37,040 nt of DNA from the NCBI GenBank assembly GCA_964549075.1, contig CAZJUB010000009.1, forward strand, positions 31,159 to 68,198. The letters run 5' to 3'. Shown here piece by piece: positions 769-29,022 of this stretch (its first letter is position 1; every line of letters starts with the position of its first letter). The notes under the pieces were generated by a model, which was given only the letters and a program-made list of their open reading frames with translations, was not told where the DNA came from and searched no databases. The stretch is from an uncultured archaeon. Lineage in GTDB: Archaea; Asgardarchaeota; Heimdallarchaeia; Heimdallarchaeales; Heimdallarchaeaceae. Position numbers and translations under genes: made by a program.

Positions 769-824
769 GGAAGTTACCTCGCTCTCATTTACTATCAAAT
801 GGTTTAAAATCTTTTGAAAAGTGA

Positions 825-6771: not shown

Positions 6772-7887
6772 ATGAAAATAGGAATAAATTGCTTTCCAAC
6801 AGTTGGTGGATCAGGTATTGTTGCTACTCAACTAGCTATTGAGATGGCAAAGAAAGGTCATGATATACACTTGATAAGTTATGATACTCCGTTTTTACTT
6901 CGAACTTTTAGACATCCAAACATAACTTTAGATCTTGTTGATATTCTCTCATATCCATTATTCAAAGATATTGGAACCCCTTATACTATACTTGCAGCTT
7001 CCAAATTAGTACAAATAGCAATGAAAACAGAAGTTGAGTTGTTTCACATACATTATGCTGTTCCTGTTGGTGTTTCAGCCTACCTAGCAAAGGACATAAC
7101 TAATATCCCTTTTGCAATTACTGCTCATGGTTCTGATATCCATACTCTCGGTATTGATCCAGCATACAATCCAGTCCTCTCTCATGTTTTCAATAAAGCT
7201 GATGGCTTATCTACTGTGTCAAATTATCTGAAAAAAGAAATTCAAATAAAATTTGCGTATAAACGGGATTTAGAGGTTTTTTATAATCCAATTGATATTA
7301 AAAAATACAAAAAAATTGATACTCAACTTTGTGATTTTAGAATTAAGTATGATAAAAATTTCATACATGTTTCAAACTTCCGTCCAGTAAAGAATGCTCC
7401 TTTTATAGTCGAAGCTTTTGCTGATGTAGTAAAAGAACAGCCTGATACAGGTCTGATAATGGTAGGGGAAGGACCAGAAAGAAAAGAGTGTGAAGATCTC
7501 GCATATAAACTCGGTATTTCAGAGAATGTAATTTTCCAAGGAGTAAGAGTTTCTATTGCTCCTATCTACAGCTGTGGTTCTGCACTTATTTCTGCTAGCA
7601 CAAACGAGAGTTTCGGATTAACATTAGCAGAAGCTATGGCTTGTGAAACACCAGTAATAGCTCCAAGAGTCGGGGGAATTCCAGAAGTTGTTGACCATGA
7701 GAAAAATGGTTTTGTTTATGAATTTGGTGATATGAAAAGTCTCACAGAATATATGCTGAGATTAGTTGATGACAAAGAATTAGTGAAAAAACTAGGAACT
7801 AATGGTAGAAAGAAAGTAGTTGATAAATTTGAATCAAGCAAAATTGCTGATTCTTACCTTGCTTGGTATGAGAAAATTCTCTCTTAA
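6772..7887 (+). CDS. bshA: N-acetyl-alpha-D-glucosaminyl L-malate synthase BshA (GT4)
   Basis: BshA-diagnostic MKIGINCFPTVGGSGIVAT, HIHYAVP, TAHGSDI, HVSNFRPVK, ESFGLTLAEAMAC. Confidence 0.9.
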   Translation: MKIGINCFPTVGGSGIVATQLAIEMAKKGHDIHLISYDTPFLLRTFRHPNITLDLVDILSYPLFKDIGTPYTILAASKLVQIAMKTEVELFHIHYAVPVGVSAYLAKDITNIPFAITAHGSDIHTLGIDPAYNPVLSHVFNKADGLSTVSNYLKKEIQIKFAYKRDLEVFYNPIDIKKYKKIDTQLCDFRIKYDKNFIHVSNFRPVKNAPFIVEAFADVVKEQPDTGLIMVGEGPERKECEDLAYKLGISENVIFQGVRVSIAPIYSCGSALISASTNESFGLTLAEAMACETPVIAPRVGGIPEVVDHEKNGFVYEFGDMKSLTEYMLRLVDDKELVKKLGTNGRKKVVDKFESSKIADSYLAWYEKILS

Positions 7888-7888
7888 T

Positions 7889-9511
7889 TTACAATCTGGT
7901 ATTTATGTAACCTATCCCACCTATAGGTGTTTCACTTGAATAATGTCTTTTGTAAGAAGCGAGGTAATCACCTAAACCTGTAATTGTTGCCATTACAAAC
8001 CATGGCCAACTTACTTCTTGCCATTGATGATGACTATCATACATACCAAATTGCCAAGATTTGTATTTTTCAATTAGGCTTATCGATTTATCACTCACCG
8101 TTATAACTTCATCCATTTTATCCCTTATTCTATTAGATAATTTGTTTGTTGCCACTTTCAGATTTTCGCTATCTTTCTTTCTTCTTGCTTTTGCTACGCT
8201 TCCTAATATTTTAAAAAAATCATCTGAAAAAAGAGACAAGGATTGAGGTTCTAAATCTCTAGAAACGTTTTCTATCCAAGGGGTATTATACAAAATTCTT
8301 GTATACTTAACAAATATTGGAAATTGTATGCCAATCTTTGTTACTGCGGGAATTACTTGTGCATTATAATTAATCTCACCTGGTCCTGAAACCCTGATAT
8401 AGATAGGTATAATTGATTGTAACAAAGCTTGATTGGTATCCAATCTTGGGATTAAATTCAGAAAGTGTTCATCTAAATCAATTTTATTCTTGTTTATAGT
8501 AAAATTATACTCTTCTTTATTCAATGGGCATTTTCCATTAAAATGAAGATTATTTTCGTCTTCAGTACAAGATAACTCTACTCTATACCCATCATTTGGA
8601 CATTCATAAAAGAAAGGAGCAAAATCCTGTTCTTTTATAGCTGTAGTAGGTTTCAATCCAAGACCTAGTATTTTCTCTGTTGTTTTATTAAATTCGTTTA
8701 GATATTCTTTTCTATTTTTTAAGAAAGGATTGTATCCTTTTAAGGTTAATTTACGAATTTCAGGATGTGATGATGGAAAGAAGATAACTCCCCAGTCGTT
8801 TAGTATGTTAGCTTGTATCCCCCAAATAAGTGTAATCCATTCTCCCATATTTGTTGAATTTCGATATGTTTCTCTTAGATAAGTAATTATGTGTTCAATT
8901 CTTTCCATAAATAATTTTTGAGAATTTAAATCAACAGAATTTTTGAATTCACTGAAAATATTTTTAATAACTTGAAGATTTTCTTCAAGCCAATCATAGT
9001 TGTCAGTTTTGATTCTATTTACAATCACTCCTTCAACCGAATCTTCTAAAACTATTGGTTTACTAATTGAAGATTGGTTGTTTGGAATATGTATTGAGGT
9101 GATTTCTGGTTGAATACTATCATGAGTATTGACTAGAAATATTGGAACAAGATAGTTATCAGTCTCTCTACTCATTTCAGAAAGGGCTGATATGGTCGCA
9201 ATCTTATTGCCTATTATACCTGATCCTCCAAAAATAGTTGTCTGTTGTCCTCCTAAAACTACCCCTTCTTGTATTAAATTAATATTTTCAAGTACTTTTG
9301 GAGTTAATAATCCTAGCTTCTTATGATATTCAATTAAGATGTTTTTTAGATTGGCAACTTTAACAAGATCTACTTCCAGTCTGGGCATTTGATTAACTTG
9401 TTTTAATACCTCTGAAAATGATCTTGGTAAATATCTGTAGAAATGATTGATCTCAGAAAAAGTATTATCTCCTCTCATATAGGATTCATAATAATCTCCA
9501 ATTGTGTCCAT
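7889..9511 (-). CDS. bshC: Bacillithiol biosynthesis cysteine-adding enzyme BshC-like (probable start ATG 9511, MDTIG; track start 9574)
   Basis: VLGGQQTTIFGG...NKIAT, VPIFLVNTHD, SGPGEINYNAQ correspond to the BshC motifs GQQ, VPVFW..EDHD and GPGE..Y.AQ; convergent with bshA, stop codons 1 nt apart. Confidence 0.82.
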   Translation of the reverse strand: MDTIGDYYESYMRGDNTFSEINHFYRYLPRSFSEVLKQVNQMPRLEVDLVKVANLKNILIEYHKKLGLLTPKVLENINLIQEGVVLGGQQTTIFGGSGIIGNKIATISALSEMSRETDNYLVPIFLVNTHDSIQPEITSIHIPNNQSSISKPIVLEDSVEGVIVNRIKTDNYDWLEENLQVIKNIFSEFKNSVDLNSQKLFMERIEHIITYLRETYRNSTNMGEWITLIWGIQANILNDWGVIFFPSSHPEIRKLTLKGYNPFLKNRKEYLNEFNKTTEKILGLGLKPTTAIKEQDFAPFFYECPNDGYRVELSCTEDENNLHFNGKCPLNKEEYNFTINKNKIDLDEHFLNLIPRLDTNQALLQSIIPIYIRVSGPGEINYNAQVIPAVTKIGIQFPIFVKYTRILYNTPWIENVSRDLEPQSLSLFSDDFFKILGSVAKARRKKDSENLKVATNKLSNRIRDKMDEVITVSDKSISLIEKYKSWQFGMYDSHHQWQEVSWPWFVMATITGLGDYLASYKRHYSSETPIGGIGYINTRL

Positions 9512-9831
9512 GGATTTCTTATAAACTAATCGGTTCTTATTAGTTTTTGTATAAGTTAAATTAGAGTAAAACAAAAACCAAAAGAGTATAGTTATTGTTT
9601 AAATTATCGTGCTTAACAAAAATCCTTTTTATCTAGAACACTACCTTTTGTTATTCCTTTAAAAGGAATGTCTTAACTTCCGACAAAAAGCATTTAACGC
9701 CCTTTTTCTTCATAAATTCTTTTTTAGATTAAACGTTCCTCTGTTATTTCTTCTTGAATCTTACACAAATTTTTTAAATGAAGACTTTATAATGAAACCA
9801 CAAGAAATAATTTTCAAGGTGAAAATAAGAA

Positions 9832-9996
9832 ATGGCTAAAGAATGCCCTAAATGTCACAGTAAAAGTCTAAAAGAAGTAGAGGATAAGTCCAAACCAATA
9901 GCTTATTTCGGACATAATCCTATTTACAAAAAGAAATTCGTTTGTAAAGAATGTACATATGAATGGTTTGATGAAGGCGGCGTAGAGGCAGGATAA
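9832..9996 (+). CDS. Unannotated 54-aa Zn-ribbon protein
   Basis: MAKECPKCHSKSLKEVEDKSKPIAYFGHNPIYKKKFVCKECTYEWFDEGGVEAG*; two CxxC motifs; AGGTGA ribosome-binding site about 10 nt upstream; shorter than any ORF in the track. Confidence 0.85.
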   Translation: MAKECPKCHSKSLKEVEDKSKPIAYFGHNPIYKKKFVCKECTYEWFDEGGVEAG

Positions 9997-10081
9997 TACC
10001 TATATGTGTATTTTCTTCCTCCATTTCTCCATCTAGAGATGATTCCTTCTCTTTTCGCATATTTTTACTTCACGTAGGGCT

Positions 10082-11221
10082 ATGAATATGAAAATTAAAG
10101 ATTTTTTAAGAAAATATACTTTTCGAATTATTATTTTTCTGATAATGGTTGGATTCTTAATATACTTCTTTTACGGATTAGATTTTCATGGTTCTTTTGA
10201 AGTTCTTAAAGAGGCATCAATTCTATATTTGTTAATCGCACTTTTTTTCATGCTAGTTAGTGCTGCAGTTAAAGCATATCGTTTCTATATGCTATTAAAA
10301 CCCAATAATCCTGATTTAAAATTTAAAAAGTTTCTACTACCTTATCTTGTAGGATATGGATTTAGTGTATTAGGACCATTTAAAACAGGAGAAGTTGCTA
10401 GTGTAGAGATAAATAAAAGAAATCTAGATATACCTCGTTCTTCATCTTTTGCAGCATTGGCATTTTTCAGAGTTGTAGATGTATTAGTAGTTCTAGTTTT
10501 CTTTATAATCGCTTTAGGAGTGACTCTACCAAAGATTATAAACAATACAGTTGATCCTGATTTAGCCTCAAAAATTCAAATAGGAACAAATATAGTCTTT
10601 TATTTGGCAATAGCAGGAACAATCGTTCTAATTGCTATATTATTTATTCCACAGATTGGAAGATTTTTCCTTAAAATAACTACAAAGGTAATAGGTAAAA
10701 TTTCTAGCAAAGCAGGCAGCTGGTTAGACAGAGTTGTTGAACCTGCTTTAAATGAATATTATAAGTCACTTAGATTTCTTTACAGCAAAATTTTCATTGC
10801 TTCAATTGTAATTATTACAACTGTGTTGAGGTGGATACTAGAAATTTATTCATTAAAATTTACATTGATAGCTTTCGGTAGCAATATAAACCTGATAGAT
10901 GCAGCATCAGTCATGTCCATAGCATTACTAATTGGTTTGATTACTCTTGTTCCTGCTGGCATAGGAACTGGAACTATTACGACACAAGTTCTACTCATCG
11001 GTTTACTTATTCCTAAAGATATAGCTACTATACCAGTACTTTATCAAGCACGCAAAGCCATAATAGACACTTCAATTCTCTATCAAGCTTTAATTGGTAT
11101 CATACTCACTTTACTACTAGCAGCGATAGCTTCTCCTTTCTTAAAAGAAGTAAAGAGAGAATTTTCTGAGGAGAAAGAAGGAAACAAATCACAAGCAATA
11201 AACAGCGAAATAGAAAATTAA
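10082..11221 (+). CDS. Lysylphosphatidylglycerol synthase TM-region / UPF0104 flippase-like membrane protein
   Basis: Multiple TM helices; KAYRF, GPFKTGEVA, RVVD and VPAGIG motifs. Confidence 0.85.
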   Translation: MNMKIKDFLRKYTFRIIIFLIMVGFLIYFFYGLDFHGSFEVLKEASILYLLIALFFMLVSAAVKAYRFYMLLKPNNPDLKFKKFLLPYLVGYGFSVLGPFKTGEVASVEINKRNLDIPRSSSFAALAFFRVVDVLVVLVFFIIALGVTLPKIINNTVDPDLASKIQIGTNIVFYLAIAGTIVLIAILFIPQIGRFFLKITTKVIGKISSKAGSWLDRVVEPALNEYYKSLRFLYSKIFIASIVIITTVLRWILEIYSLKFTLIAFGSNINLIDAASVMSIALLIGLITLVPAGIGTGTITTQVLLIGLLIPKDIATIPVLYQARKAIIDTSILYQALIGIILTLLLAAIASPFLKEVKREFSEEKEGNKSQAINSEIEN

Positions 11222-11940
11222 ATACCCCGTCGTAAACGACTTATAAGAAAATGATGAAATCCTAGTTCTTCCATTTTTTTACAAGTAGTTTCGACATCAT
11301 ACTCAAGTCTAATGTGTTCATACTCGAAATCTTTTGATTTTTCATTTATTCTAAATGTCATAAACGAAGCTCTAGGATCATTGTCTCTAGGTTGACCAAC
11401 AGAACCAGGATTTAAGAGATGTTTTCCTTCATTAACAATATGAAGAGGTTTATGGGTGTGTCCTAAAAAGAGGAAGTCAATCTCTGTAAATTCTCTCGTT
11501 ATCTCAAAAAAGATATTATAAGACCATGAAGGTAAATCTGGAGATACATAATCTCTTAAAGGTCTTCTTGGAGAACCATGAACAAACATTGCATTCCCTT
11601 CTGTAATAAAAAGTGGAAAAATGGAGAAAAACGGGTGAGATCCCAAGAGAAGTTTTTCTTGTTCTGTTAGTATATTTTTAGTCCAAGACAACGAAATTTT
11701 AGGTAAAGGATTAAAATACTTGAAATTATCCTTAAAAATTGCATAATCATGATTCCCGACAACATGTATCTGTGCTAGATTTTCAACTATTTCCAAACAT
11801 TCTCTTGGATTAGGTCCATATCCAACTGTATCTCCAAGATAGATAATAATGTCAGGAGATAAATCTTTGATTTTATCAGCTACTTCAGATAATGCTTCAA
11901 GATTTGAATGAACATCTGAAAAGATAGCTAGAGTAATCAT
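11218..11940 (-). CDS. Metallophosphoesterase (calcineurin-like, MJ0912-type)
   Basis: SDVHSN, LGDTVGYGP, GNHD, HGSP, GHTH, NPGSVGQPRD. Confidence 0.92.
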   Translation of the reverse strand: MITLAIFSDVHSNLEALSEVADKIKDLSPDIIIYLGDTVGYGPNPRECLEIVENLAQIHVVGNHDYAIFKDNFKYFNPLPKISLSWTKNILTEQEKLLLGSHPFFSIFPLFITEGNAMFVHGSPRRPLRDYVSPDLPSWSYNIFFEITREFTEIDFLFLGHTHKPLHIVNEGKHLLNPGSVGQPRDNDPRASFMTFRINEKSKDFEYEHIRLEYDVETTCKKMEELGFHHFLISRLRRGI

Positions 11941-12033
11941 TTATATTTCTCTCTTATATTTTCTTAATTATCTTTCATTTAAATAAAGTATTTGTTAAAA
12001 AATGAAAAGATAAAGGTAAGGAGATTAAATAAC

Positions 12034-14034
12034 TTATACTTCTTCTTCTTTACCTTTGTATTTTATTGTGGCAAAACCGCCAAGAATAACTAATCCTAAA
12101 GATACAATGAAAAGTATCATTGCTAAATAATCTATTGAAATTGGATTACCTACTGTAGGCTGAACGTAAATCTCATATAACTCCGTTTGGTTATAACCAT
12201 ATCCTCTTTTATGCATACGTATAGTAACATCGATAAAATCTGCTTTAATTGTATTTGCAGGAGTGATAGTTCCATTAAAGTGCCTATTATCTCCGGTGTT
12301 TACAAGATTTTCTTGGTTTCGATCAGCCTTAAGTTCGAGAATTACTACCCACACATGAAGGTTTTCAACTGTTGTATTATTATCACTATAAACTGTTATA
12401 TGAACATTGATAAAGCCACCTGCTAATATCTCTGTTTCTTCAACAACAAAGTCTTCATAAGATAGTAGATGTTGCAAGTTAAATAGCCATTGAACTTGAC
12501 TGATAAATAGATATTTATTATCTGCTTTAATAATGTTAGATGAATTAAAAATATCTGCAGATGCTGTAGCAATAAGTTTACCTCCTCTTTGTAACTCGAC
12601 TGCTGCTTGGAAAACTGCTGAGTCATTCAGGTTGTAATCTGCACTGCTGTTATACATTCTATCATCATCTAGATCAACGTAGAATTCACCTGTTTTGTTC
12701 AAAGTTGCATATAGGTCTCCTTGTTGAAATTGTATATACATCTCTCCAGAAGTACCATTATTTGTAAAATTTAAAGCTGATCCTTGGTAGAAGATTGAAG
12801 TAACATCTTGATTAGAAAGAATTGATGAATCCGTGAAGTATGGAATATCAGCTATATCTGCAGAATCCAGTGTTATTGTAGAATTAACACCTAAATCTTC
12901 AGAGAAAATTGTTGAATTAAATATTTGTAGACCGAAGTTTTCTAATAGTTTATTGATGGGTTTTGTATCTGCTGAAATCTCGCCTAAAATATACAAGCTA
13001 CCACCTGATGCAGTATAGAATCTGAGAGCTTCAACATCATTATCAGTTAGATCATTTAAGGCTCCAACTAAGATTATTAGGTCGTAACTATCAATTACAT
13101 TATATACAAATTCGTAACCATTTGACTCAAATTTTTCAGTTATATTAAATCCATAACTGTTTAGTATGTTATTAATTACTGAAAGATTATGTTCTAGAGA
13201 ATTTTGAGAATCAGAAATGTATGTGAGAACACTTTTTGCTGACAGATCTTCTTCATAAGAGAAATATTCGTATGTTGGATATAATCTAAAAGATTTCCAC
13301 TGACTGACTCTGTTATATAGTTCTGTATAATTATAATTTGCTGTGTTATTTTTAAAGAGAATAACCAGATAACTAATAGTATCTCCATCATTAAGTTCAA
13401 TATCTCTACCAGCAGTGTCTTTTGAATTCAATTCTTTAGCTATCTCAATAGATACTTCATATCTGTTAAAATCATCTAAATGTTTGTTTAAAGCAGCAAC
13501 TGAGTTTTCAACTCCTGTAGCGTTATTATCACCAATCATTGAGTTATAAGCTGTTCCGTTTATGAACATGTCTTGTCCTCCTAATTGTCTGTAATTAATA
13601 GCTACACAATCATCAGCAGTGATGTTAGAAGAGCCAATTAAAGCATCAAAACTGTTATCAAAAACTACAGCTAACCAAGTATGATTAACAGAATTGTAAT
13701 CTACATAGACAGCACTAGTATAACTTATGCCCATAAATAAATGGGTAGAATTTGCTTGAACACGTATTGTTACAGATATTTCATTTTGAGAAGGACCTAT
13801 AGAAACAGTTTGGACTGTAGCATTTTCCCATTCTCCTAAATAACTTTCTAAATTACCATCTATTATTGGTTCTGTATTGTTTAAAAACACAATATCCCCT
13901 TGAGGTGATATTTGAGAAATTTTCTTTTCATCTGAAATCATCGCTTTTGATGAAACACTGCTAAAACTTGAGAGTATTAGTCCTAGTATAATAGTTAAAA
14001 CTACAATTATTTTCTTAACATATCGTGTTCGCAC
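12034..14034 (-). CDS. Single-pass surface protein: signal peptide, DOMON/CBM9-like domain, GIFT domain, Ig-like domain, C-terminal TM (OST48/Wbp1-like)
   Basis: Hydrophobic N-terminus; IDGNL...GEWENA; YDLIILVG...DVEALRFYTASGGSLYILGE...INKLLENFG...GKLIATASADIF...DN..F....QWL; TM LAMILFIVSLGLVILGGFATI then KYKGKEEEV; many NxS/T sequons. Confidence 0.72.
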   Translation of the reverse strand: MRTRYVKKIIVVLTIILGLILSSFSSVSSKAMISDEKKISQISPQGDIVFLNNTEPIIDGNLESYLGEWENATVQTVSIGPSQNEISVTIRVQANSTHLFMGISYTSAVYVDYNSVNHTWLAVVFDNSFDALIGSSNITADDCVAINYRQLGGQDMFINGTAYNSMIGDNNATGVENSVAALNKHLDDFNRYEVSIEIAKELNSKDTAGRDIELNDGDTISYLVILFKNNTANYNYTELYNRVSQWKSFRLYPTYEYFSYEEDLSAKSVLTYISDSQNSLEHNLSVINNILNSYGFNITEKFESNGYEFVYNVIDSYDLIILVGALNDLTDNDVEALRFYTASGGSLYILGEISADTKPINKLLENFGLQIFNSTIFSEDLGVNSTITLDSADIADIPYFTDSSILSNQDVTSIFYQGSALNFTNNGTSGEMYIQFQQGDLYATLNKTGEFYVDLDDDRMYNSSADYNLNDSAVFQAAVELQRGGKLIATASADIFNSSNIIKADNKYLFISQVQWLFNLQHLLSYEDFVVEETEILAGGFINVHITVYSDNNTTVENLHVWVVILELKADRNQENLVNTGDNRHFNGTITPANTIKADFIDVTIRMHKRGYGYNQTELYEIYVQPTVGNPISIDYLAMILFIVSLGLVILGGFATIKYKGKEEEV

Positions 14035-14209
14035 TTGAGTCTACTCCATTGAGTTTATTAAAGGCCTAGCTTTTGCCTTTTTAAACTTTATTTCTTCAAA
14101 GAAGTTCAAGGCACTTATAATGCAACAGTAGCAAAATACTTATTTGAATATGGAAATACTGTATAATCGTAATCTAAATAATCTGTATCTGACTGATGGA
14201 GATAAGAAC

Positions 14210-15433
14210 ATGTCTGAGCTTAAGAATAAACTTCTAAAAGAAGAGTATAAAGATCAACCTGAAGTAAAAAAGTTACCAATTTTAGCGTTATTAGAAATTT
14301 CTGAAGATGAAGCAAAATTTTTGAAGGAAATTGGCTTAGAAACTATTGAAGGTCTTGCTACTGAGTGGAGTAATTATTATGATAAAATAGCAAAAAGAAT
14401 TCCAAAGGAAAGGATAAACAGCTGGATCGCTGCTAGCAGACTCCTATCACTTGAAGACACAAAAAAAGTTACTTCAGGAGCTAAAATCATCATGGTGGGA
14501 ATTGATAATGCTGGAAAAACTTCATTATCAATCGCTTTGAAACATCGTGGAGCATTATCTTTATTATTCCAAAAATTATATGCTTTAACTCCAACAAGAG
14601 GTTTACTCAGAAGCAAAATTGAGGTATTTGGATTAGATGTGCACATGCATGAACTTGGAGGACAAAGTATCTACCGAGAAGATTATTTGAACAATCCCCA
14701 ACAATATTTTATTGGAACTGATATTATTATTTTCGTTTTAGATGTGCAAGCAAAAGAAAGATTTGAAGAAAGTTTTGAATATTTGAAACAAATCACAAAC
14801 GTTACAAATTCATTAAAATTAAAAGTTCCTTGGAAGATATTTTTCCATAAATCAGATCCAGAATATGAAATTGATGATAAAAGTGCTGAAATATTTAGTT
14901 CGATTATTGACTACATGTCTAAAAACTGCCCCCATTTCAATCCTGCAAAAGATTTCTTTAGAACAAGTGTAAAAATTAGGTCATCAATTTTAGGTGCTTT
15001 TTCACATATTTTCAGGGAAATTTCTCTAATTCAAGATGGTGTTAAGAATGCATCTCAAAAAATAGCTGAAGAGCTAAATGCAGATTTCTTCGGATTATAT
15101 GACTTTAGAAGTAATGTGTGTTTTGCTCAATTCGCAAAAGAAGAAAATCTAACTGACGTATCACATAATGCATACTATGAAGCTATTGAAACTATAGTTA
15201 ATATGAGAGAACCATTTCTTAGAATTCGAAGATATACTCTTGAAAATGAAGTAAATGAAATTTTCATTTTAAGAGACCTGCGTTTTGGTGGAGATCGTTA
15301 CATTATGGCAATGTTAACGCAAGATGAAGAAATAGCAAGAAATCTTGATCAAGATGCTATTCAAGAAATCATTGATGAACAATTACAAGATTGGATAGAA
15401 TTCAGAGGATATGCAACGTTTCCACTTGAATAG
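14210..15433 (+). CDS. Rag/Gtr-like small GTPase with N-terminal HhH-like domain and C-terminal roadblock/longin-like domain (probable start ATG 14210; track start 14144)
   Basis: G1 GIDNAGKTS, G2 PTRG, G3 ELGGQ, G4 HKSD, G5 TSV; GGAGA upstream of ATG 14210. Confidence 0.85.
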   Translation: MSELKNKLLKEEYKDQPEVKKLPILALLEISEDEAKFLKEIGLETIEGLATEWSNYYDKIAKRIPKERINSWIAASRLLSLEDTKKVTSGAKIIMVGIDNAGKTSLSIALKHRGALSLLFQKLYALTPTRGLLRSKIEVFGLDVHMHELGGQSIYREDYLNNPQQYFIGTDIIIFVLDVQAKERFEESFEYLKQITNVTNSLKLKVPWKIFFHKSDPEYEIDDKSAEIFSSIIDYMSKNCPHFNPAKDFFRTSVKIRSSILGAFSHIFREISLIQDGVKNASQKIAEELNADFFGLYDFRSNVCFAQFAKEENLTDVSHNAYYEAIETIVNMREPFLRIRRYTLENEVNEIFILRDLRFGGDRYIMAMLTQDEEIARNLDQDAIQEIIDEQLQDWIEFRGYATFPLE

Positions 15434-15520
15434 TATTTACTACATCTTAAACGTCATTTATTTTTTCGCATTAATAAAAAGATAAATCTTTAAGATAGTT
15501 AGATTTCAATGAGCAAAGAT

Positions 15521-15611
15521 GCTCCGATAGCTCAGCCCGGCTAGAGCGGTGATCTCGTAAAGTTATCGAGAAAGTCGCAGAACGGGGGTTCAAATCCCCC
15601 TCGGAGCTCCA
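15521..15611 (+). tRNA. tRNA-Thr(CGU) with a 13-nt intron at position 37/38 (15560-15572), CCA encoded
   Basis: Acceptor stem GCTCCGA/TCGGAGC, discriminator T, anticodon CGT at 15556-15558; intron AAGTTATCGAGAA forms a CTCG/CGAG central helix with 3-nt bulges; T arm GGGGG-TTCAAAT-CCCCC. Confidence 0.92.
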
Positions 15612-15654
15612 TTTTCCGCTCAAAGTTTAAATATATCTGTAATTCTATCCAACT

Positions 15655-16587: not shown

Positions 16588-16661
16588 AGATGTAAGTACT
16601 TCATTAAACAAAAAGGAAGAATATTTCTTCAAGCATCTTTCAATCTCTTGGAGAGATTTAT

Positions 16662-17120: not shown

Positions 17121-17161
17121 CATCATAAAACAAATTTATAATTTGAAAACTAAATTTAATC

Positions 17162-18187: not shown

Positions 18188-18189
18188 TT

Positions 18190-18558: not shown

Positions 18559-18700
18559 TGAACAAAAGTATTGCTGATTATTAAAAACACACCTTATTAC
18601 CGGTGTAATATACTGGAAACATCAAAAAATGTATTTTATTGACAAAAAACAAGATAAACCAGTTTTGAGAAAAATGTATTTGGAACATTTTTTTATGTTT

Positions 18701-21244: not shown

Positions 21245-21297
21245 TTCATCATGGGTGTGATGATGAGTGTTTTAAAATCTTTGTCTTTGAAAGAATT

Positions 21298-21924
21298 TCA
21301 AGATACGGGAATTTGACGTATCACATCGTTATTGAGTAGATCCTTTGTCGCTAATTGAGCATCTGTTTCAGTGAGTTTCATTAATTTAACAATATCATTA
21401 AGAGTAGCAGTTCCTTTGTATTTCAGTAAGGATATTACCTTTTTCTGTTGCCTACTATAGGATCTGTTGATATCTTGTGTTATGATTTTTGGATTTAATT
21501 CAAGCTTAGTGCTAGCTAGATTTTCTACGGGCATTGTATACTTCTTTAAATACCTATCAATATACTCCTCCATCATAGAGAAATGTTCTACTCTCCCATT
21601 CCAATCCTTTAGTTCTTCAGAATAACGGTTTTGGAATTCTTCTTGGATTTTCTTCAAGTCTGATCTAATTCGATTATCTTCTTCATTACAATCTGTACAA
21701 ACTACTGTTACTAGTTGATTAGATGTGGCATAGATGAACTTGAAATTTTTAGTTTGAAGAAAATCACATCCTTCGTCAACATTCTGTGCAAAAATTTCGA
21801 TTGCGCTTAAGAAACTGGTTATCAGATTCTCATCATGGTCTATGCTTCCATACTTTTTGTGATAAAGACATTCACCTGTATCTTTAGCTATCCAGATATT
21901 ATGTAACATAGACTTCAAGAACAT
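21298..21924 (-). CDS. Longin-domain protein fused to a C-terminal winged helix
   Basis: IWIAKDTGECLY...DENLITSFLSAIEIFA...LKKIQEEFQNRY...WNG is the Asgard longin pattern; QKKVISLLKYKGTATLNDIVKLM...LLNNDVIR is wHTH-like. Confidence 0.8.
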   Translation of the reverse strand: MFLKSMLHNIWIAKDTGECLYHKKYGSIDHDENLITSFLSAIEIFAQNVDEGCDFLQTKNFKFIYATSNQLVTVVCTDCNEEDNRIRSDLKKIQEEFQNRYSEELKDWNGRVEHFSMMEEYIDRYLKKYTMPVENLASTKLELNPKIITQDINRSYSRQQKKVISLLKYKGTATLNDIVKLMKLTETDAQLATKDLLNNDVIRQIPVS

Positions 21925-22044
21925 AAAATAAACTCAGCACAAAAAGTCTCATAATACATGGATATTTTCACATTCACACTTTTAGTGAAAATTTAACAAT
22001 AATTTCAAAAGAAAAATGAAATAAAAATAAGGAAAAAAAGTAGT

Positions 22045-22701
22045 TTATGCTTTGTAAGGCATAACCTCTAAAACTATGTTTTCATCCGATAATTCAGCAT
22101 CTCGAGCAGCTTTTCGAATTGCTTCTTTTGCAATCTCAACCATTTGCTCAGTTGTTAAATCCTCGTTGTATGTTTCTTTCAAATGTGCTATAGCTTCAGA
22201 ATCTCCTTCACCCATTGCTTTCGCTTTGCAAGACATTACTCCACCACCAGGATCAACAAAATGAAGGCTTGGGCCTGTTTGATCTATTCCACCATATAAT
22301 AATCCAACTCCAAATGGTCGAAGACCACCTTGTTGAGTGAACATTTGAATGTAATCTCCTATCTTAATTGATAGTCCTCTAACATCTATTGGATCGGCGT
22401 AAGTTAACTTGAAGATTTCTGCTTCTAGTCTAGAACGCGAGATAAGAATTCTTCCATCTGCAGCAACACCAGCAAAAATAGCTTGAATGTTCTCTGAAAT
22501 TTTGTGAATCTTTAAATCAGGTTCATTTAAATCTACGATTCTGAGTAATCCTGCAAGTACTACTCCATGGTTACTTTTTATTCCTATTGCTATACTTCCT
22601 CTTCTGACTGATTCTCTTGCATATTCAGTTTGAATGATACGTCCTTCAGGTGAGTACATAGTTGTTGTTCTGTCATATCCCATTGATTGTGGTCCTAACA
22701 T
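22045..22701 (-). CDS. psmA: 20S proteasome alpha subunit (divergent, short)
   Basis: GYDRTTTMYSPEGRIIQTEYA, AGVAADGR, TQQGGLRPFGV, VDPGG. Confidence 0.95.
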   Translation of the reverse strand: MLGPQSMGYDRTTTMYSPEGRIIQTEYARESVRRGSIAIGIKSNHGVVLAGLLRIVDLNEPDLKIHKISENIQAIFAGVAADGRILISRSRLEAEIFKLTYADPIDVRGLSIKIGDYIQMFTQQGGLRPFGVGLLYGGIDQTGPSLHFVDPGGGVMSCKAKAMGEGDSEAIAHLKETYNEDLTTEQMVEIAKEAIRKAARDAELSDENIVLEVMPYKA

Positions 22702-22705
22702 TTTC

Positions 22706-23368
22706 TTATGCCTCCAAGTATTTCTTTACTTCTTCTGAAGTCAATCTTTTGACTCCTTTTTTATTGACTATTACAACATCCATTCCGTCTCCAGTAGCAG
22801 CATCTCTGCTAATAGCAGTAGCTAAAGCTAATATAGCTATTTTCAAGCCTTCTTCTTCAGTTAAATCTTCTTTCCATTGGGATTCCAAAACACCATATGC
22901 AACAGGCGAACCTGATCCAGTTGATGCAAAATCCTCATCTGATATACCTCCAGCCATATCAAGTGTATAGACGTGAGGTCCATCTTTATCTAAACCAGCA
23001 ACAATCATTTGAACCCAATAAGGGAAGTAGGATCTATATTGTTCATACATTATAGAAGCAAGTAAATTTCCTGCCATTTTTGTTGAAGGCGAGTATCCTC
23101 TTCCTAGTTCATAGAGATTCAGATTAGCTCTTGTTAAATTAACAAGATATTGAGCATCTGAAACCATTCCAGCAATTGTAGCAACTGTAAAATTGTTGAG
23201 TTCATGTAACTTATCTGCTTTTTTAGATGCAACAAAAGTACCCATTGAAGCTCTTTTGTCAGCTGCTGCTGCAATTCCTCCTTTGAATCTTAGTGCAATG
23301 GTAGTTGTACCATGCTTTGGTTCCATATATGAGTTGTTTGCCATCCCATTAAAGTTTGGATTGTTCAT
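22706..23368 (-). CDS. psmB: 20S proteasome beta subunit with 20-aa propeptide
   Basis: HG|TTTIAL autocleavage site, ADKRAS, AGMVSDAQ, STGSGS, RDAATGDG. Confidence 0.96.
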   Translation of the reverse strand: MNNPNFNGMANNSYMEPKHGTTTIALRFKGGIAAAADKRASMGTFVASKKADKLHELNNFTVATIAGMVSDAQYLVNLTRANLNLYELGRGYSPSTKMAGNLLASIMYEQYRSYFPYWVQMIVAGLDKDGPHVYTLDMAGGISDEDFASTGSGSPVAYGVLESQWKEDLTEEEGLKIAILALATAISRDAATGDGMDVVIVNKKGVKRLTSEEVKKYLEA

Positions 23369-23430
23369 AACATTACCTCAATTTTTTTAGTTTTCTTTCG
23401 CTTAAATATTTAGTGTTTTCACTGTTTATA

Positions 23431-24162
23431 TTAATTATAAGTTATTTCATCAGTGTGAGTTATTATCTTGTCTTCATAAACGTCTAAACTCACATTGTCT
23501 AATTCTATTAATTCACCACTCACCCAATTCACGACCATATTAATACTTGAACTTGACGGATGATTCTCCTGATATTCAATATCGATTATACCATCTTTAT
23601 GAATATTTAAATGAACGCGATTTTTATCTAAATCCTCCCAACATAGCTGAATATAGCTCTTAGTTTGCTTTTTATAGATAAAACGAAAATTACCAAACCA
23701 CCTTTTTTCAAGAATTGAACTAATGATATCTTGTTCTAATGGTGGTATTGTGTGTAACCTTTTCCATTTAGAACTATAGTTGTTATTTTGTATATCAATG
23801 GCTTTAACATTTAGTAAATCTCGTATCAAAGATTTGGTATATCTGCTTCCGGAATTGGTAAGTTCATATGATCCCAAATCGTTTTTTGAGAGGTACTTAC
23901 GATCTTGTAGTCTTTTGAGTGCTTTTGTTAGTTGATGTTGGTGAAGTTCAGTAGTCTTTCTTAAACCTGAAAAACTATAAGCTACGTTAGAATCCGATAA
24001 TGTGAGAAGTAATTGAACCTCAGGTAGAGTCATGTATTCATACTCTAAACTATAGAAGTAATCATCTGGTAAATTATCTAATTTCAAACTTTTATCTTCT
24101 TGCTTGAAGCTTGATAAATCATAATACCCTTGGTCCATATTCATAATATTATCAATATACAA
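23431..24162 (-). CDS. Winged-helix (MarR-like) putative regulator with C-terminal alpha/beta domain
   Basis: EVQLLLTL...SFSGLRKTTELHQHQLTKALKRLQDRKYL...YELTNSG; the start may be a downstream Met. Confidence 0.75.
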   Translation of the reverse strand: MYIDNIMNMDQGYYDLSSFKQEDKSLKLDNLPDDYFYSLEYEYMTLPEVQLLLTLSDSNVAYSFSGLRKTTELHQHQLTKALKRLQDRKYLSKNDLGSYELTNSGSRYTKSLIRDLLNVKAIDIQNNNYSSKWKRLHTIPPLEQDIISSILEKRWFGNFRFIYKKQTKSYIQLCWEDLDKNRVHLNIHKDGIIDIEYQENHPSSSSINMVVNWVSGELIELDNVSLDVYEDKIITHTDEITYN

Positions 24163-24207
24163 TACTGCTTATCAGTATATAATGACTTGGTTTTATACGA
24201 ATATTGT

Positions 24208-25965
24208 TTAATTGTTGTTTGTTTCCTCGCCTGAATTATTTTCAGATTCCTCAGTTGAATCTTGTGTTGTTGATACAGAAGTTGGATGTAAATACACTTC
24301 CCCTTCTAAAATAGTATAAGGTATTCGACGTTCATCAATCCAAGGAGCTTCTTCTCGGAACTCTTTAAACATATCATTTGAAATTATCATAGCATTTTCT
24401 TCATCAGCAAGTCGTAAAATGAATTTATCTCCATCTACTCGTGCGGGTAGCATCTTAATTGCTCCTTCTTTTACTAACTGATCTAATCTCTTCTGTTCAT
24501 CAATTTGGTATCTAAGAGCAGCATCAGCTACAGTAATTATTTTCTTGAAATTCGCTCTACTTAGTCTGTTTATCATTGCTTCAATATTGGCTATCTTAGG
24601 TTTATTAGCGGAATTTTTTTCTTCCCAAGCGATATTAGAGCCATCCAGAATTGCTGTTTCAAATGGGTAGTTTAATTCTGGAAAAATTCTGTCTCTATTA
24701 AGTTGTGCTTTTGTAGCTAGACCAAGGAAAATATCCCTTGAAAAATAAGCTAATCCCAAGAGTAAAGTTGTAAAAACAATTCCAAAAGCAATTTGAGATG
24801 TAAGGGTTGGATTAGTTACTGGTTCTGATGAAAGAACTATTACTTCTTGAAATCTAGTTAATAATAAAGTTGTATACCAATTAGTTCCAGAGAGAGTTGT
24901 CCATTCTAGATCAATTGAGAAAAATAGAGCTACAATCCCTGTGTTTACCGGATCCCCTGATAAAATCAAGAAGTTTTTTCCATTAATAACCCTGACAGAG
25001 GTTTCGATATCATTAAACATGATATTTTCACACTCTACCCTAGGTTGAACATAGAGTGATACACCTTCACTATTTGTAATTTCATAATCTATTAAATATT
25101 CTTCACCCATGGTCACGTTTATTGGAAGATACCAATTATCAACTGTTATATAAGGCTCGACTATAATCTCTAGTGTATCACTTTCTGTAACTCTTTCAGT
25201 ATCTGGATCATCAATAGATCGGTAAGTCAAAGTAAAGGTGTGCTTCTGATATAAAGAAGTGTCTGGATAAAATCCAATAGTATCTGAAAACGTTTTACCA
25301 CTCTCAATTTCTAAATTGTAGACAGAAACTGATCGTGTAATGGATCCAGTTGTTCCTGTTTTATGGATTTCATTTGTTACTGTAACGTTAGTTACTGTCG
25401 TTCCTCCTGTATTGGATATAACGAATTGAACATCATTAGTTTGATCCCTTGTAAGATAAACTGTTCTTAGTGGAAAATACATTCTTACTATTCCAAATGG
25501 TAGAACTACCAATTCAAATGTTTTAAAAGTGGAATACATTTTGGAGGTCGTACTATTAGCAAAAGCATTAACACTATAATTGCCAGCATCTTGACCATTG
25601 AATGTAGACCATGGAACAGTGTGATTGACATATCCTGTAGCTGTCTCATTCAGTAATATTGAGTTATCATAAATCATTTCATGACTAGGATTTGTAATAT
25701 TTAGTCGTATATATGAATCAGGGATGTAGGATTCATTTTCATAGGTATATTGAAATAAAACAATAAGATCATCTTCTCCCCTTGTTAAAACAGATGAATT
25801 TAATCCCATGACAAAAGTAGCATTTTCAAGAAGATTTAAACTAGGAAATTGAGAACTAATATTAGAAGGATTTCTGGCCTCAATTATGGAATTTGTAGGA
25901 TTAACCACTAGTGTAAAGAACATGAATCCTACAACTAATAAGTAGACCTTTGACCTCCTATACAT
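24208..25965 (-). CDS. Single-pass membrane protein: signal peptide, Ig-like/CARDB-like ectodomain, TM helix, cytoplasmic Zc3h12a (Regnase)/NYN ribonuclease domain
   Basis: N-terminal hydrophobic signal; beta-rich, sequon-rich region (VISNTGGTTVTNVTV); TM IAFGIVFTTLLLGLAYF; AILDGSNIAW, VADAALRY, PARVDGDKFILRLA, IISNDMFKEF. Confidence 0.88.
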   Translation of the reverse strand: MYRRSKVYLLVVGFMFFTLVVNPTNSIIEARNPSNISSQFPSLNLLENATFVMGLNSSVLTRGEDDLIVLFQYTYENESYIPDSYIRLNITNPSHEMIYDNSILLNETATGYVNHTVPWSTFNGQDAGNYSVNAFANSTTSKMYSTFKTFELVVLPFGIVRMYFPLRTVYLTRDQTNDVQFVISNTGGTTVTNVTVTNEIHKTGTTGSITRSVSVYNLEIESGKTFSDTIGFYPDTSLYQKHTFTLTYRSIDDPDTERVTESDTLEIIVEPYITVDNWYLPINVTMGEEYLIDYEITNSEGVSLYVQPRVECENIMFNDIETSVRVINGKNFLILSGDPVNTGIVALFFSIDLEWTTLSGTNWYTTLLLTRFQEVIVLSSEPVTNPTLTSQIAFGIVFTTLLLGLAYFSRDIFLGLATKAQLNRDRIFPELNYPFETAILDGSNIAWEEKNSANKPKIANIEAMINRLSRANFKKIITVADAALRYQIDEQKRLDQLVKEGAIKMLPARVDGDKFILRLADEENAMIISNDMFKEFREEAPWIDERRIPYTILEGEVYLHPTSVSTTQDSTEESENNSGEETNNN

Positions 25966-26062
25966 AATTACACTTCTATTTTATTATTTAACTAATATTT
26001 TTTTTAGGTTTAATAAGTTTAACGTGAGTAAACGTTTTTTTACATGAAAAAATGAAAAATGT

Positions 26063-26393
26063 TGAACGATGCGAAAATACCCCTGATTCTGTTGGGAAGC
26101 CGTCAAGGACCTTCCGGGCAACATTCGTCTAAGCACTTTACCCAGTTCATGAGAACTCTACTTAAGCTTGCTCCTCGATGATTGACCGTTTCAACGTTTC
26201 CTATATTCTCCTCAGCAAGTTATCTCTAAAGATGTTACCATTTTATTCATCGCATCATTGTCTCCGAATATAGGCCGTGCCGTTTCTGTTCCAAGAGCCA
26301 TGTTCTCACATGGTGGATTTGCATCCACATCGATTTTGATGGAGTCAGGAGGTTCCTCAGCAAATGCCGATAGTTGCCATTTCGCTTCGTTCA
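26063..26393 (-). ncRNA. rnpB: RNase P RNA (archaeal)
   Basis: Minus strand: P1 UGAACGAAGCGAAA/UUUCGCAUCGUUCA; CR-I GAGGAACCUCCUGA pairs with CR-V AACAGAAUCAGGGGUA (P4 with bulged U); ACAGAAA, UGAAAC, GAGCAAG and GCUUAG..GAAUG elements in the expected order. Confidence 0.93.
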
Positions 26394-26455
26394 TGTACTG
26401 AATAGTAGCTATATAAAATAAAATTATCTGTTCTTGTTAAGAGCTGGGCAATTTT

Positions 26456-27670
26456 TTATATTACATCCATGCTCTTACCTATTTTTCCCATGGTTTCAAG
26501 AATAAAATCAACCTCTTCCTCGGTATGTGTTGCCATAACACAACAACGTAACCTTCCTGCTTCTTTAGGCACAGCAGGGAAAACTATCGGAGGAACAAAA
26601 ATTCCTTCTTTTTTCATTTTCTTAGCAAAACGGAAAGTTTTGATATCATCACCAATTATAACAGGAACTATTGGTGTATCTTTACTTCTTAAAGTATCAA
26701 ACCCTAATTCTTGGACTCCAGTAATGAAATGTGTATAGTTCTTCTGAAGTTTTCTAATAAGATCTTTATCTTTTTCAATTATATCAAATGCTTTTAGAGC
26801 TACAGCTGCACATACCGGTGGTAGAGCTGCACTAAATACAAAAGCATTAGACGTAAACTTAAGATAGGAAATTACTTCTTTTCTTGCAGCTATATATCCT
26901 CCTATAGATGGTATCGCTTTACTTAAAGTTCCCATGAATATATCTACTGAACCGGGTGCAAGATTAAAATAATCATCAACTCCTCTTCCATTAGGACCTA
27001 TCGTACCTAATGCATGAGCTTCATCGACCATTGTAAAAGAATCATATTTTTTAGCAGTTTCTATGATTTCTGGCATAGAAGCAATATCTCCATCCATACT
27101 ATATACGCCATCAACAATAACTAGAACTCGTTTATAATTAGGACGATGCTCTTTCAATAATCGTTCTAAATCATTCATGTCGTTATGATTAAATCTCTTC
27201 CATTCAGCTTTGGATAAGATACAGCCATCATATATGCTCTGGTGATCATATTTATCGATTAAAATCAAATCTTCTTTACCAAAAAGTGAAGATATTAATG
27301 TCATATTTGTGACATAACCACTACTGTAAACTACAGCACCTTCTGTATTCTTAAATTCTGCAATTCGATTTTCTAAATCTTCATGAATATCAGCGGTACC
27401 TGTCAGCAATCTCACTCCTCCAGCTCCACTCCCATACTTATCTATTGCTTCATGTGCAGCAGCAATTATCTCAGGATGAGTTATTAAACCTAGGTAACTA
27501 TAGGAACCTAACATCAGAAGTTCTTGATTATCTACCATAACCTTATGGGAAGCTGAACCTTGTATAGGTAGCATATAAGTCATCAATCCAAATCTATGAA
27601 GTTTCTTCTCTCTCTCCAACAAATCCTTAATTTTTCTGTTATCTATGATTTCTGTAATCTGTCTCACCAC
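26456..27670 (-). CDS. Alpha-oxoamine synthase family PLP enzyme (serine palmitoyltransferase-like / BioF / Kbl family)
   Basis: LGSYSYLGL, GVRLLTGT, DHQSIYDG, DGVYSMDGD, DEAHALG, GTLSKAI (PLP lysine). Confidence 0.9.
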   Translation of the reverse strand: MVRQITEIIDNRKIKDLLEREKKLHRFGLMTYMLPIQGSASHKVMVDNQELLMLGSYSYLGLITHPEIIAAAHEAIDKYGSGAGGVRLLTGTADIHEDLENRIAEFKNTEGAVVYSSGYVTNMTLISSLFGKEDLILIDKYDHQSIYDGCILSKAEWKRFNHNDMNDLERLLKEHRPNYKRVLVIVDGVYSMDGDIASMPEIIETAKKYDSFTMVDEAHALGTIGPNGRGVDDYFNLAPGSVDIFMGTLSKAIPSIGGYIAARKEVISYLKFTSNAFVFSAALPPVCAAVALKAFDIIEKDKDLIRKLQKNYTHFITGVQELGFDTLRSKDTPIVPVIIGDDIKTFRFAKKMKKEGIFVPPIVFPAVPKEAGRLRCCVMATHTEEEVDFILETMGKIGKSMDVI

Positions 27671-27817
27671 TTACTGATTATGAAACGATATTCGTTATAC
27701 CAAATAATATCTTATTAATAAAACTTCACATCAAAATACGAGAAAAATCTAAAAAGTGCTCTTTTATATATTTGTGGGGTTTAAATAGGTTCATTCCACA
27801 GAGATTACTGAAAGTAA

Positions 27818-28183
27818 ATGACAAGATTTTGGGGTGACAATGAAGAAGCTCGAACTATAGCTAAAAAAACAATAGAGACTCACCTACAAACAATTACTCG
27901 CCGACAAGAATATGTCAATATCCAAGATCTTTTCAAATTGCTATGGAACGATTATCATCTTTTTGATCATTATCTCAGACTAGTTCTTAGATTAGAAGAA
28001 CTAGAAAGTGAAGCAAAAATAACTATTGATCCACAAAAAAATCTTAGACCTGTGAAAATGACTGTTTTAGAAACTTCTGGATTGAAGGAAATAGAAGTGT
28101 GGGATTTTTACAAAAAAAAGGAACAAGTTGATTTTAACAAGAAAATTATTGAAAGATATAAAAAAATCAATCCTATTGTTTAA
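27818..28183 (+). CDS. Hypothetical protein (121 aa)
   Basis: Clean ORF filling the gap between the AOS gene and a tRNA; no motif recognised. Confidence 0.7.
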   Translation: MTRFWGDNEEARTIAKKTIETHLQTITRRQEYVNIQDLFKLLWNDYHLFDHYLRLVLRLEELESEAKITIDPQKNLRPVKMTVLETSGLKEIEVWDFYKKKEQVDFNKKIIERYKKINPIV

Positions 28184-28256
28184 TTCTGTTTATTATTTTA
28201 ATCGAAAAATATAAAGAGGGAGAAGTTTAGATGAAAACAAGTTCCTGAATTTTCAC

Positions 28257-28332
28257 GACCAAGTAGTTCAGTGGATAGAATGGCTGCCTGCGGAGCAGTT
28301 GGTCGCCGGTTCAAATCCGGCCTTGGTCGCCA
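28257..28332 (+). tRNA. tRNA-Arg(GCG), CCA encoded
   Basis: Acceptor stem GACCAAG/CTTGGTC, anticodon arm GCTGC-CTGCGGA-GCAGT, T arm GCCGG-TTCAAAT-CCGGC. Confidence 0.97.
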
Positions 28333-28371
28333 ATATCCTTTCTTTGTATCTATTAGAACTGAAATCTTCAC

Positions 28372-29022
28372 CTAAAGCTCCGAATGTTTAGATTCATAAA
28401 ATGGACTGTTCTTTTTCAAAGGTATTTGCGAGAAAGCTTCTGCATATTCTGTTGATGCTTGTGTTCCTCTCATTTTTGTTCTATATTTATGAAAATTAAC
28501 ATAGAAATTCTCTCCACCTTTGTACAGTTGTGATTTGTAACATTTAATTGCTGATTCTTTAATATCATAATACTCAGAGATATCTACAAGAATTTGAGGA
28601 TTTGGAATTAGAATGGTTGTTTCTGTAACGTAGAGTTTAGAAACTAAATGTGGATTATCATACTGTGTTTCATGAGCTGCCCATTCAATAGCTTCTCTTA
28701 CAATTCTATAACAAGTTCTATGGTCAATATGATAGTCATCTTCTAAGTGTGTAATGATTATCTCAGGTCGAAACTCCAAAAGGAAAGATATGAAATCTTT
28801 TGTTATTTCTCTCTCAAAATCAATAACATTCTCATAATCATAAATCCTAGTTTCTTCACAACCTAACTCTTTTATTGCCTCAAAATACTCTTTTTTCCTT
28901 TCTGGAGAAGAAGAAAAACATACTGAACACACCTTGTGATCTGTTCTGGAATATTTGGCTATCGTACCACCAGAACTCAGTGATTCATCATCGGGATGAG
29001 CAAATACAAAAGCGATTTTCAC
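28372..29022 (-). CDS. PIG-L/LmbE family deacetylase, BshB-like
   Basis: AHPDDE, FRPEIIITH...HIDH, VDIS...K..AIKCYKSQ, RGTQASTEYAEAF (BshB1-like RG..(G)..YAEAF ending). Confidence 0.82.
   Translation of the reverse strand: MKIAFVFAHPDDESLSSGGTIAKYSRTDHKVCSVCFSSSPERKKEYFEAIKELGCEETRIYDYENVIDFEREITKDFISFLLEFRPEIIITHLEDDYHIDHRTCYRIVREAIEWAAHETQYDNPHLVSKLYVTETTILIPNPQILVDISEYYDIKESAIKCYKSQLYKGGENFYVNFHKYRTKMRGTQASTEYAEAFSQIPLKKNSPFYESKHSEL

Follow-up and report, generated by a model that had tools for sequence, protein, structure and literature searches.

A 37-kb stretch of DNA from a Heimdallarchaeaceae archaeon, referred to here as the window, carries homologues of the three enzymes of bacillithiol biosynthesis, BshA, BshB and BshC, and we consider it probable that they represent the Heimdallarchaeaceae version of an archaeal-type bacillithiol pathway, with bacillithiol or a trivially modified form of it as the predicted product. 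In the proposed scheme, BshA (6772-7887, plus strand) would join UDP-GlcNAc to L-malate, a PIG-L/LmbE enzyme (28372-29022, minus strand) would remove the acetyl group and an archaeal-type BshC-like protein (7889-9511, minus strand) would add cysteine to yield bacillithiol (Cys-GlcN-malate), or a derivative very close to it, which would serve as the low-molecular-weight thiol of the cell. In the Heimdallarchaeaceae, the gene cluster is split, with bshA and bshC still tail-to-tail beside tsr3 and bshB about 19 kb away behind a thioredoxin reductase (TrxR)-like gene, and the zinc ribbon of BshC has decayed. What the sequences show is that the three proteins belong to or are homologous with the Bsh families, that their genes are inherited together and cluster in different archaeal lineages, that core residues are kept and that selection is purifying; each catalytic step and the product we infer. 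The original prediction, made from the letters of the DNA, had placed three open reading frames at these positions and described bshA and the bshC-like gene as tail-to-tail; both statements hold, the bshC-like gene ending (7889) one base from the bshA stop codon.

The 371-amino acid product of bshA, a GT4 glycosyltransferase, scored 359.5 bits against TIGR03999, over an equivalog cut-off of 273.7 and with profile positions 1-374 of 375 covered, and this profile search bears out the BshA identity first proposed for it. BshA structures in the PDB match the protein at 234-260 bits. It is identical at 71 of the 92 columns that are invariant in 14 bacterial-type BshAs, whereas four other GT4 paralogues of the same genome are only 18-37% identical over the same columns, and six residues that do not vary among the BshAs (H94, Y95, P98, N202, R204 and Y362) are missing from the GT4 paralogues. 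The ratio of nonsynonymous to synonymous substitution rates (dN/dS) of bshA ranged from 0.04 to 0.19 in nine pairs within the Heimdallarchaeaceae. By every available sequence test the protein is a BshA, and the transfer from UDP-GlcNAc to L-malate by an N-acetylglucosaminyl L-malate synthase is its predicted reaction.

The bshC-like gene starts from an ATG at 9511 and encodes 540 amino acids, in agreement with a publicly called protein (P0001, 100% identity); the mechanical open reading frame extends to an alternative TTG at 9574. Its product exceeded the cut-off for PF10079, the Rossmann-like N-terminal domain of BshC (97.9 bits vs 27), and the sole relative found in the PDB was Bacillus subtilis BshC (4wbd), with an E-value of 1.2e-9 when the single sequence was the query and of 2.3e-22 when the family profile was used. 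Against a protein library, 193 representatives were retrieved at E up to 1e-3, comprising about 60 close relatives and, after a gap, canonical BshCs at E 3e-12 or weaker with 22-28% identity. Comparison of 29 archaeal-type with 36 canonical BshC proteins by hhalign gave a probability of 100 and an E-value of 5e-44 over 484 columns, in an alignment that begins close to the N-terminus, takes in the C-terminal motif and stops no more than about 25 columns before the end, and a feature-based look-up in the Atlas returned BshC clusters only. Because of the profile comparisons and the Atlas look-up, we assign the protein as a full-length but divergent BshC homologue.

The original prediction had drawn attention to NTHD in place of EDHD and to the lack of an obvious QER motif, and had taken the motif differences as a ground for suspecting a variant thiol. 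NTHD is indeed present, at residues 128-131, but the aspartate within it (D131) is the invariant one and is kept. The second point probably does not hold, since the profile alignment over the whole length puts an archaeal QEV on the canonical QER; Q498 and E499 are kept in 75 of the 77 archaeal proteins, and no Pfam match to the C-terminal domain (PF24850) was obtained for the BshC-like protein. Q90, K103, D131 and Y382 are present in all 77 archaeal-type and all nine canonical BshC proteins, E136, R310 and E379 in all 77 and in eight of the nine, and G376, Q498 and E499 are also among the invariant residues common to both types (kept in eight or nine of the nine canonical proteins). The C-terminal region of the Heimdall-clade proteins is shorter. 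With the invariant aspartate and the QE pair kept and the profiles aligned over the whole length, the motif differences are no particular ground for expecting a variant thiol from the predicted enzyme; a variant product is weighed below as a rival in its own right. The dN/dS of the bshC-like gene was 0.09-0.22 in nine Heimdallarchaeaceae pairs, similar to the 0.06-0.28 of the neighbouring tsr3.

An inserted cysteine cluster had also been described in the BshC-like protein. The segment is present (ECPNDGYRVELSCTEDENNLHFNGKCP; residues 304-331, 8519-8602, minus strand), but it is not a new insertion. Both cysteine knuckles, CxnC and CxxC, are found in 24 of 24 Thor-clade and 27 of 27 Bathy-clade BshC-like proteins, and the C-terminal knuckle only in five of five proteins from other Heimdall lineages. 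Among the Heimdallarchaeaceae-like proteins, one of 20 has the C-terminal knuckle only and 19, including that of the window, have neither; of the four cysteines of the ribbon, C304 and C328 are all that is left in the window protein. Eight of nine canonical BshC proteins likewise have neither knuckle and the ninth has the C-terminal one only. The cluster is, on this comparison, the decayed remnant of a predicted CxnC...CxxC zinc ribbon ancestral to the archaeal clade, and the gene is under purifying selection despite the decay of its ribbon.

The distribution of the genes was counted in 301 genomes of the phylum of the window (Asgard), with BshA taken at E up to 1e-60. PF10079 was found in 143 genomes and BshA in 140, 134 of them above the cut-off, and the two proteins showed the same family-level pattern. 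BshC and BshA, respectively, were present in 27/28 and 27/28 genomes of family f1, 10/11 and 11/11 of f2, 10/11 and 10/11 of f6, 67/76 and 69/76 of f11 and 17/19 and 16/19 of f17, and in 1/21 and 0/21 of f5 and 1/68 and 0/68 of f14. The PF10079 scores separate 11 canonical matches (227-280 bits; f6 and one f24 genome) from all others, which lie at or below 100 bits. We also scanned species-representative genomes for the locus with an 8-row alignment query, which gave at least 261 confirmed loci among 596 pattern matches; the best 80 were analysed, 60 outside and 20 inside a Heimdallarchaeaceae-like group. BshA was present at 75 of these 80, and outside the group the median gap was 13 bases. 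The 60 outside loci included 56 with BshA, 48 with an orthologue of the window PIG-L and 47 with both within 8 kb, and most of the misses were short contigs. Inside the group, the arrangement bshC-bshA-tsr3 recurs in 19 of 20 loci. The co-occurrence in the 301 genomes and the clustering in other archaeal lineages both favour the claim, made from the window alone, of a complete BshA, BshB-like and BshC-like set in an Asgard archaeon.

Some of these loci carry further genes beside the bsh cluster. In two Thor-type loci that were inspected (L079, 3438-4838; L098, 3978-5366), a phosphoglucomutase/phosphomannomutase-family (GlmM-like) gene and a class I/II aminotransferase gene flank the cluster, and in a sister Heimdall lineage (L050, 7257-12263; G054:C2) hydantoinase/oxoprolinase A and B genes lie between a TrxR-like/bshC-like pair and bshA. 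The gene for Tsr3 (16S rRNA aminocarboxypropyltransferase family; 6173-6712, plus strand), directly upstream of bshA in the window, adjoins bshA in sister lineages also (L050, L052 and L076).

In a quick maximum-likelihood tree of BshC (86 rows, LG+G4, Shimodaira-Hasegawa-like approximate likelihood ratio test (SH-aLRT) support only, clade labels taken from the record titles of the submitters), the archaeal type forms one clade with support of 98, separate from canonical BshC, and its sub-clades fit the labels: Heimdall (98), Thor with Hermod (100) and Bathyarchaeia (100). The BshA tree contains the same Heimdall, Thor and Bathy clades. A locus labelled Krumholzibacteriaceae (L087) falls deep inside the Bathy clade in both trees and is probably a misbinned contig rather than a bacterial member. 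The f6 genomes are different: 10 of 11 carry a compact bacterial-type bshC-bshB1-bshA operon (e.g. L051, G229:C90, 6162-9564; also L018-L028), with all proteins above the bacterial equivalog cut-offs (BshC 386.5, BshB1 222.5 and BshA 405-423 bits), and in the BshA tree, where bacterial rows are thin (four labelled, six unlabelled), their protein clusters with sequences labelled as bacterial (SH-aLRT 96). This suggests a separate acquisition of the f6 pathway, and one archaeal class holds two different versions of the predicted pathway. The original prediction had proposed phylogeny as the means of telling transfer from vertical inheritance; for the archaeal type, the match of the BshC and BshA clades with lineage argues against recent transfer.

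The 216-amino acid PIG-L protein exceeded the cut-off for PF02585 (78.2 bits vs 28.2). The best-scoring model for it was BshB1 (TIGR04001), aligned over profile positions 7-219 of 226 with the C-terminus included, and the BshB2 model gave 66 bits for a cut-off of 195. Its top matches in the PDB were 2ixd and 6p2t, Bacillus proteins of the BshB1 type, the latter deposited as GlcNAc-malate deacetylase 1, and diacetylchitobiose deacetylases ranked after both. The AHPDD and DYHIDH motifs align to the matching motifs of 2ixd and 6p2t. All of 18 aligned PIG-L proteins, one canonical BshB1 included, share H9, D11, D12 and H101, and these residues match in position those reported to bind zinc in the Bacillus enzyme (His12, Asp15 and His113; PMC5790435). 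Orthologues of the window protein, at 35-45% identity, lie inside the bshA/bshC cluster at 48 of the 60 loci outside the Heimdallarchaeaceae-like group, and because of this clustering we take it to be the deacetylase of the pathway. The orthologue was found in 31 of 31 Heimdallarchaeaceae genomes and, in 13 of them, on the same contig as bshA and bshC at a distance of 10-25 kb. These data support the prediction of a pathway-linked deacetylase that was relocated in the Heimdallarchaeaceae, here by about 19 kb.

Directly upstream of the PIG-L gene and on the same strand is the gene for a TrxR-like flavoprotein (29074-30009, minus strand), and this pair is kept in 30 of 30 Heimdallarchaeaceae loci from five genera, with variable genes downstream of the pair. 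The protein scored 200 bits against TIGR01292, below the cut-off of 343, and carries a CAVC redox motif with no HRRxxxR-type stretch. It has CPDAELGC where NADPH-dependent enzymes such as 2q7v have a His-Arg-Arg stretch, which we take to be the NADPH-binding motif of TrxR enzymes, and the stretch is absent also from 3cty, the closest solved relative. Identification of the protein as YpdA/Bdr was rejected, as it gave 69.4 bits against TIGR04018 (cut-off 339.9) and the thioredoxin reductase model fitted it better. Divergently oriented TrxR-like genes that share its GVSDCAVCD motif lie next to bshC-like genes in other Heimdall lineages; the best match of these proteins in the window genome is the TrxR-like protein at 29074-30009, by a modest margin over a paralogue (89-109 vs 74-96 bits). 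Taken together, this linkage suggests the TrxR-like protein as a candidate for a reductase that serves the thiol system specifically.

Upstream of the TrxR-like gene, a winged-helix gene (HTH_24/MarR; 30143-30361, minus strand) is found in 27 of the 30 Heimdallarchaeaceae loci. Its 72-amino acid product contains no cysteine and is 91-99% identical within a genus, far more conserved than its neighbours. Co-transcription is not implied, because the gene is on the opposite strand in one genome. A k-mer search of the regions upstream of bshC and of the TrxR-like gene in the family gave no motif present in at least half of both sets. Further signs of a thiol system were seen in the Bathyarchaeia-labelled bsh loci (L085, L087, L092, L106 and L112), where an Amidohydro_2 gene lies between bshB and bshC, a Thioredoxin_9 gene (WCGDC, a CxxC motif) between bshC and bshA and one or two DinB_2/MST-type genes beside bshA. 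DinB_2/MST is the superfamily of the bacillithiol and mycothiol S-transferases, and the window genome contains 12 DinB_2 matches, 11 of them above the cut-off. No GCS2-type glutamate-cysteine ligase was found in the window genome, which is 89.7% complete with 3.4% contamination.

Several observations weigh against reading the window as an archaeal bacillithiol pathway. The BshC-like protein scored 97.6 bits against TIGR03998, under the equivalog cut-off of 265.8 and over profile positions 13-433 of 529, which together with the pass for PF10079 agrees with its earlier description as a divergent BshC; the PIG-L protein scored 86.4 bits against TIGR04001 for a cut-off of 182.5. The genome holds three PIG-L paralogues of similar BshB1 score (86.4 for the window protein, 79.8 and 70.0), the PIG-L adjoining bshA at one Heimdall locus (L073) resembles the C18 paralogue instead, and PIG-L is found within 8 kb of bshA/bshC in none of the 20 Heimdallarchaeaceae-like loci. 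Neither the bacilliredoxins BrxA/B and BrxC (PF06491, PF11009) nor a YpdA above cut-off was found in the window genome, their absence being unproven at this completeness. In the passages cited here, bacillithiol is described as never detected in an archaeon (PMC7278568), a 2025 RefSeq BLAST survey lists no archaeon with a complete bacillithiol pathway (PMC12719100), and the BshC reaction is described as not reconstituted in vitro even for the bacterial enzyme (PMC5790435).

The same pathway logic could lead to another product, namely a bacillithiol analogue made through the archaeal-type deacetylase and ligase or through an extra tailoring step, with a different amino acid, a cysteine whose amine is modified (as in N-methyl-bacillithiol) or a different acid as the aglycone. 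Such an outcome would fit with both downstream enzymes being far from the bacterial equivalogs and in archaeal clades of their own, with the extra Amidohydro_2 gene of the Bathyarchaeia-labelled clusters and with the occurrence of N-methyl-bacillithiol as a natural derivative in bacteria (PMC12719100). However, the GlcNAc-malate scaffold is set by a canonical BshA, the BshC-like protein retains the invariant residues of its family and the deacetylase its metal-ligand residues, and no methyltransferase or other tailoring gene lies beside the bsh genes in the window; we regard an analogue as unlikely. We also considered that the genes do not form one thiol pathway here, so that the GlcNAc glycoside made by BshA would serve some other end, for instance as a solute or a precursor of glycans, the function of the BshC-like protein would have changed with the loss of its ribbon and the distant PIG-L would carry out a different deacetylation, for instance of the chitobiose or conjugate-amidase type. 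The split cluster, the decayed ribbon, the missing bacilliredoxin and YpdA (in a genome 89.7% complete) and the rank of the diacetylchitobiose deacetylases as the next PDB relatives after the two BshB1-type entries speak for this reading, but near-universal retention in the Heimdallarchaeaceae (BshA 27/28, BshC 27/28, PIG-L 31/31), purifying selection, the shared contig of PIG-L and bshA/bshC in 13 genomes and the PIG-L orthologues inside the cluster in Thor, Bathy and other Heimdall lineages leave it only an outside chance.

Bacillithiol is otherwise a bacterial trait, and f6, of the same class, does carry a bacterial-type operon with a BshA that groups with bacterial-labelled sequences; bacterial contamination of the bin or a very recent bacterial transfer was therefore considered. 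The contig is full of archaeal and Asgard genes with an even GC content of 30-35% throughout the window, the BshA and BshC-like proteins fall into Heimdall clades that match the lineage and the bshC-bshA-tsr3 arrangement is recurrent. On gene content, GC and tree placement we rejected contamination, and we give this explanation next to no credence. The archaeal-type bacillithiol pathway stays the reading that we favour.

The presence of bsh genes in Asgard archaea had been surveyed before, as the original prediction had supposed. Rawat and Maupin-Furlow in 2020 reported 39 archaeal InterPro matches each for BshA and BshC, mostly Asgard, with BshB not mentioned in the archaeal passage of that review (PMC7278568), and NCBI product names already call these homologues BshA and BshC. 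The survey of 2025 used Chlorobaculum proteins as queries at E up to 1e-20 (PMC12719100), a threshold that divergent archaeal BshB and BshC, and lineages represented only by metagenome-assembled genomes, would miss; its supplementary dataset may list borderline archaeal matches. Our full-text literature search, which covered sources other than subscription journals and supplements, returned no paper on the archaeal clade of BshC or its zinc ribbon, on the orthologous deacetylase or on the linkage with the TrxR-like gene, and the novelty is in these variant details and not in the existence of the bsh genes.

Measurements of bacillithiol have so far come from bacteria only. A native, conserved and selected three-gene set in Heimdallarchaeia, Thor-type Asgards and Bathyarchaeia-labelled genomes leads to the prediction that many sediment archaea use a bacillithiol-type thiol, among them relatives of the eukaryotic host lineage, contrary to the 2025 survey as cited (PMC12719100). 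The archaeal BshC clade also provides a second, very divergent sequence set for the question of the cysteine donor of BshC, an enzyme whose gene was originally found through linkage with bshA (PMC5790435). A more speculative proposal, which we think is unlikely to hold as a whole, joins these elements into a self-contained archaeal bacillithiol redox system, in which the TrxR-like protein would be the missing disulfide reductase and may replace the bacterial YpdA with electrons from a donor other than NADPH, and in which the ancestral ribbon, dispensable in the Heimdallarchaeaceae, may mark the docking of an activated-cysteine donor for all BshC enzymes. If true, archaeal relatives of the eukaryotic host would have used bacillithiol rather than glutathione.

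The surroundings of these genes are archaeal or Asgard-like, with an Rpb5/RpoH homologue, OapC, Tsr3, a Gtr1/RagA-Arf-type GTPase, proteasome alpha and beta subunits and an NYN RNase, and public homologues of the window proteins are named Candidatus Heimdallarchaeaceae or Heimdallarchaeota. The Rpb5/RpoH homologue (1-798, minus strand), which runs off the window, combines an N-terminal restriction-endonuclease-like (Mrr_cat) domain, which may be the counterpart of the eukaryote-type Rpb5 N-terminal domain, with a Lys/Pro/Val-rich repeated tail (KKAPVKEVPA...). At 12034-15433, a 666-amino acid protein with weak IFT52-GIFT and ABC_transp_aux matches adjoins the GTPase, which has 429 amino acids and an N-terminal extension of about 110; these two and a weak longin-like protein at 21298-21924 are Asgard genes of the eukaryote-signature type. 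A BioF/Kbl-family PLP (pyridoxal phosphate) acyltransferase (26456-27670, minus strand) gave near-equal scores as serine palmitoyltransferase, glycine C-acetyltransferase and BioF (406, 401 and 394 bits), each under its cut-off, and the Pfam search returned no match for the open reading frames at 2140-4404 (minus strand, 754 amino acids) and 34421-37039 (plus strand, more than 873 amino acids, running off the window).

Among known systems, the mycothiol pathway of Actinobacteria (MshA/MshB/MshC) has analogous chemistry, with a GT4 glycosyltransferase, a PIG-L deacetylase and a cysteine ligase, but the MshA, MshB and Mca models scored 74.6, 49.6 and 40.5 bits, far under the Bsh models, and no MshC-type ligase is involved in the predicted pathway. 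The BshA/BshB1(B2)/BshC pathway of Bacillus subtilis, B. anthracis, Staphylococcus aureus and Deinococcus comprises the same three enzyme families as the window, and the likeness extends to a BshA above the equivalog cut-off, to the His/Asp/His positions of PIG-L, to the linkage of bshC with bshA and to the overall architecture of BshC, with its Rossmann-like domain and with a C-terminal region whose alignment extends through the QE motif. Unlike in the bacterial pathway, the window BshC and BshB are below their equivalog cut-offs and in archaeal clades, and BrxA/B/C and YpdA were not found in the window genome (89.7% complete); the ribbon ancestral to the archaeal proteins, decayed in the window, is absent from eight of nine canonical BshCs. 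The bacterial-type operon of f6 encodes the same predicted pathway with proteins that pass the bacterial cut-offs, unlike the window BshC and BshB. The bsh clusters labelled Thorarchaeota, Hermodarchaeota, Bathyarchaeia and other Heimdall carry BshA, PIG-L and BshC-like proteins orthologous to those of the window, with the three genes adjacent and, in the Thor and Bathy clades, the ribbon intact, whereas in the window bshB lies about 19 kb off and the ribbon is lost; the Bathyarchaeia-labelled loci, unlike the window, add DinB, Thioredoxin_9 and Amidohydro_2 genes to the cluster.

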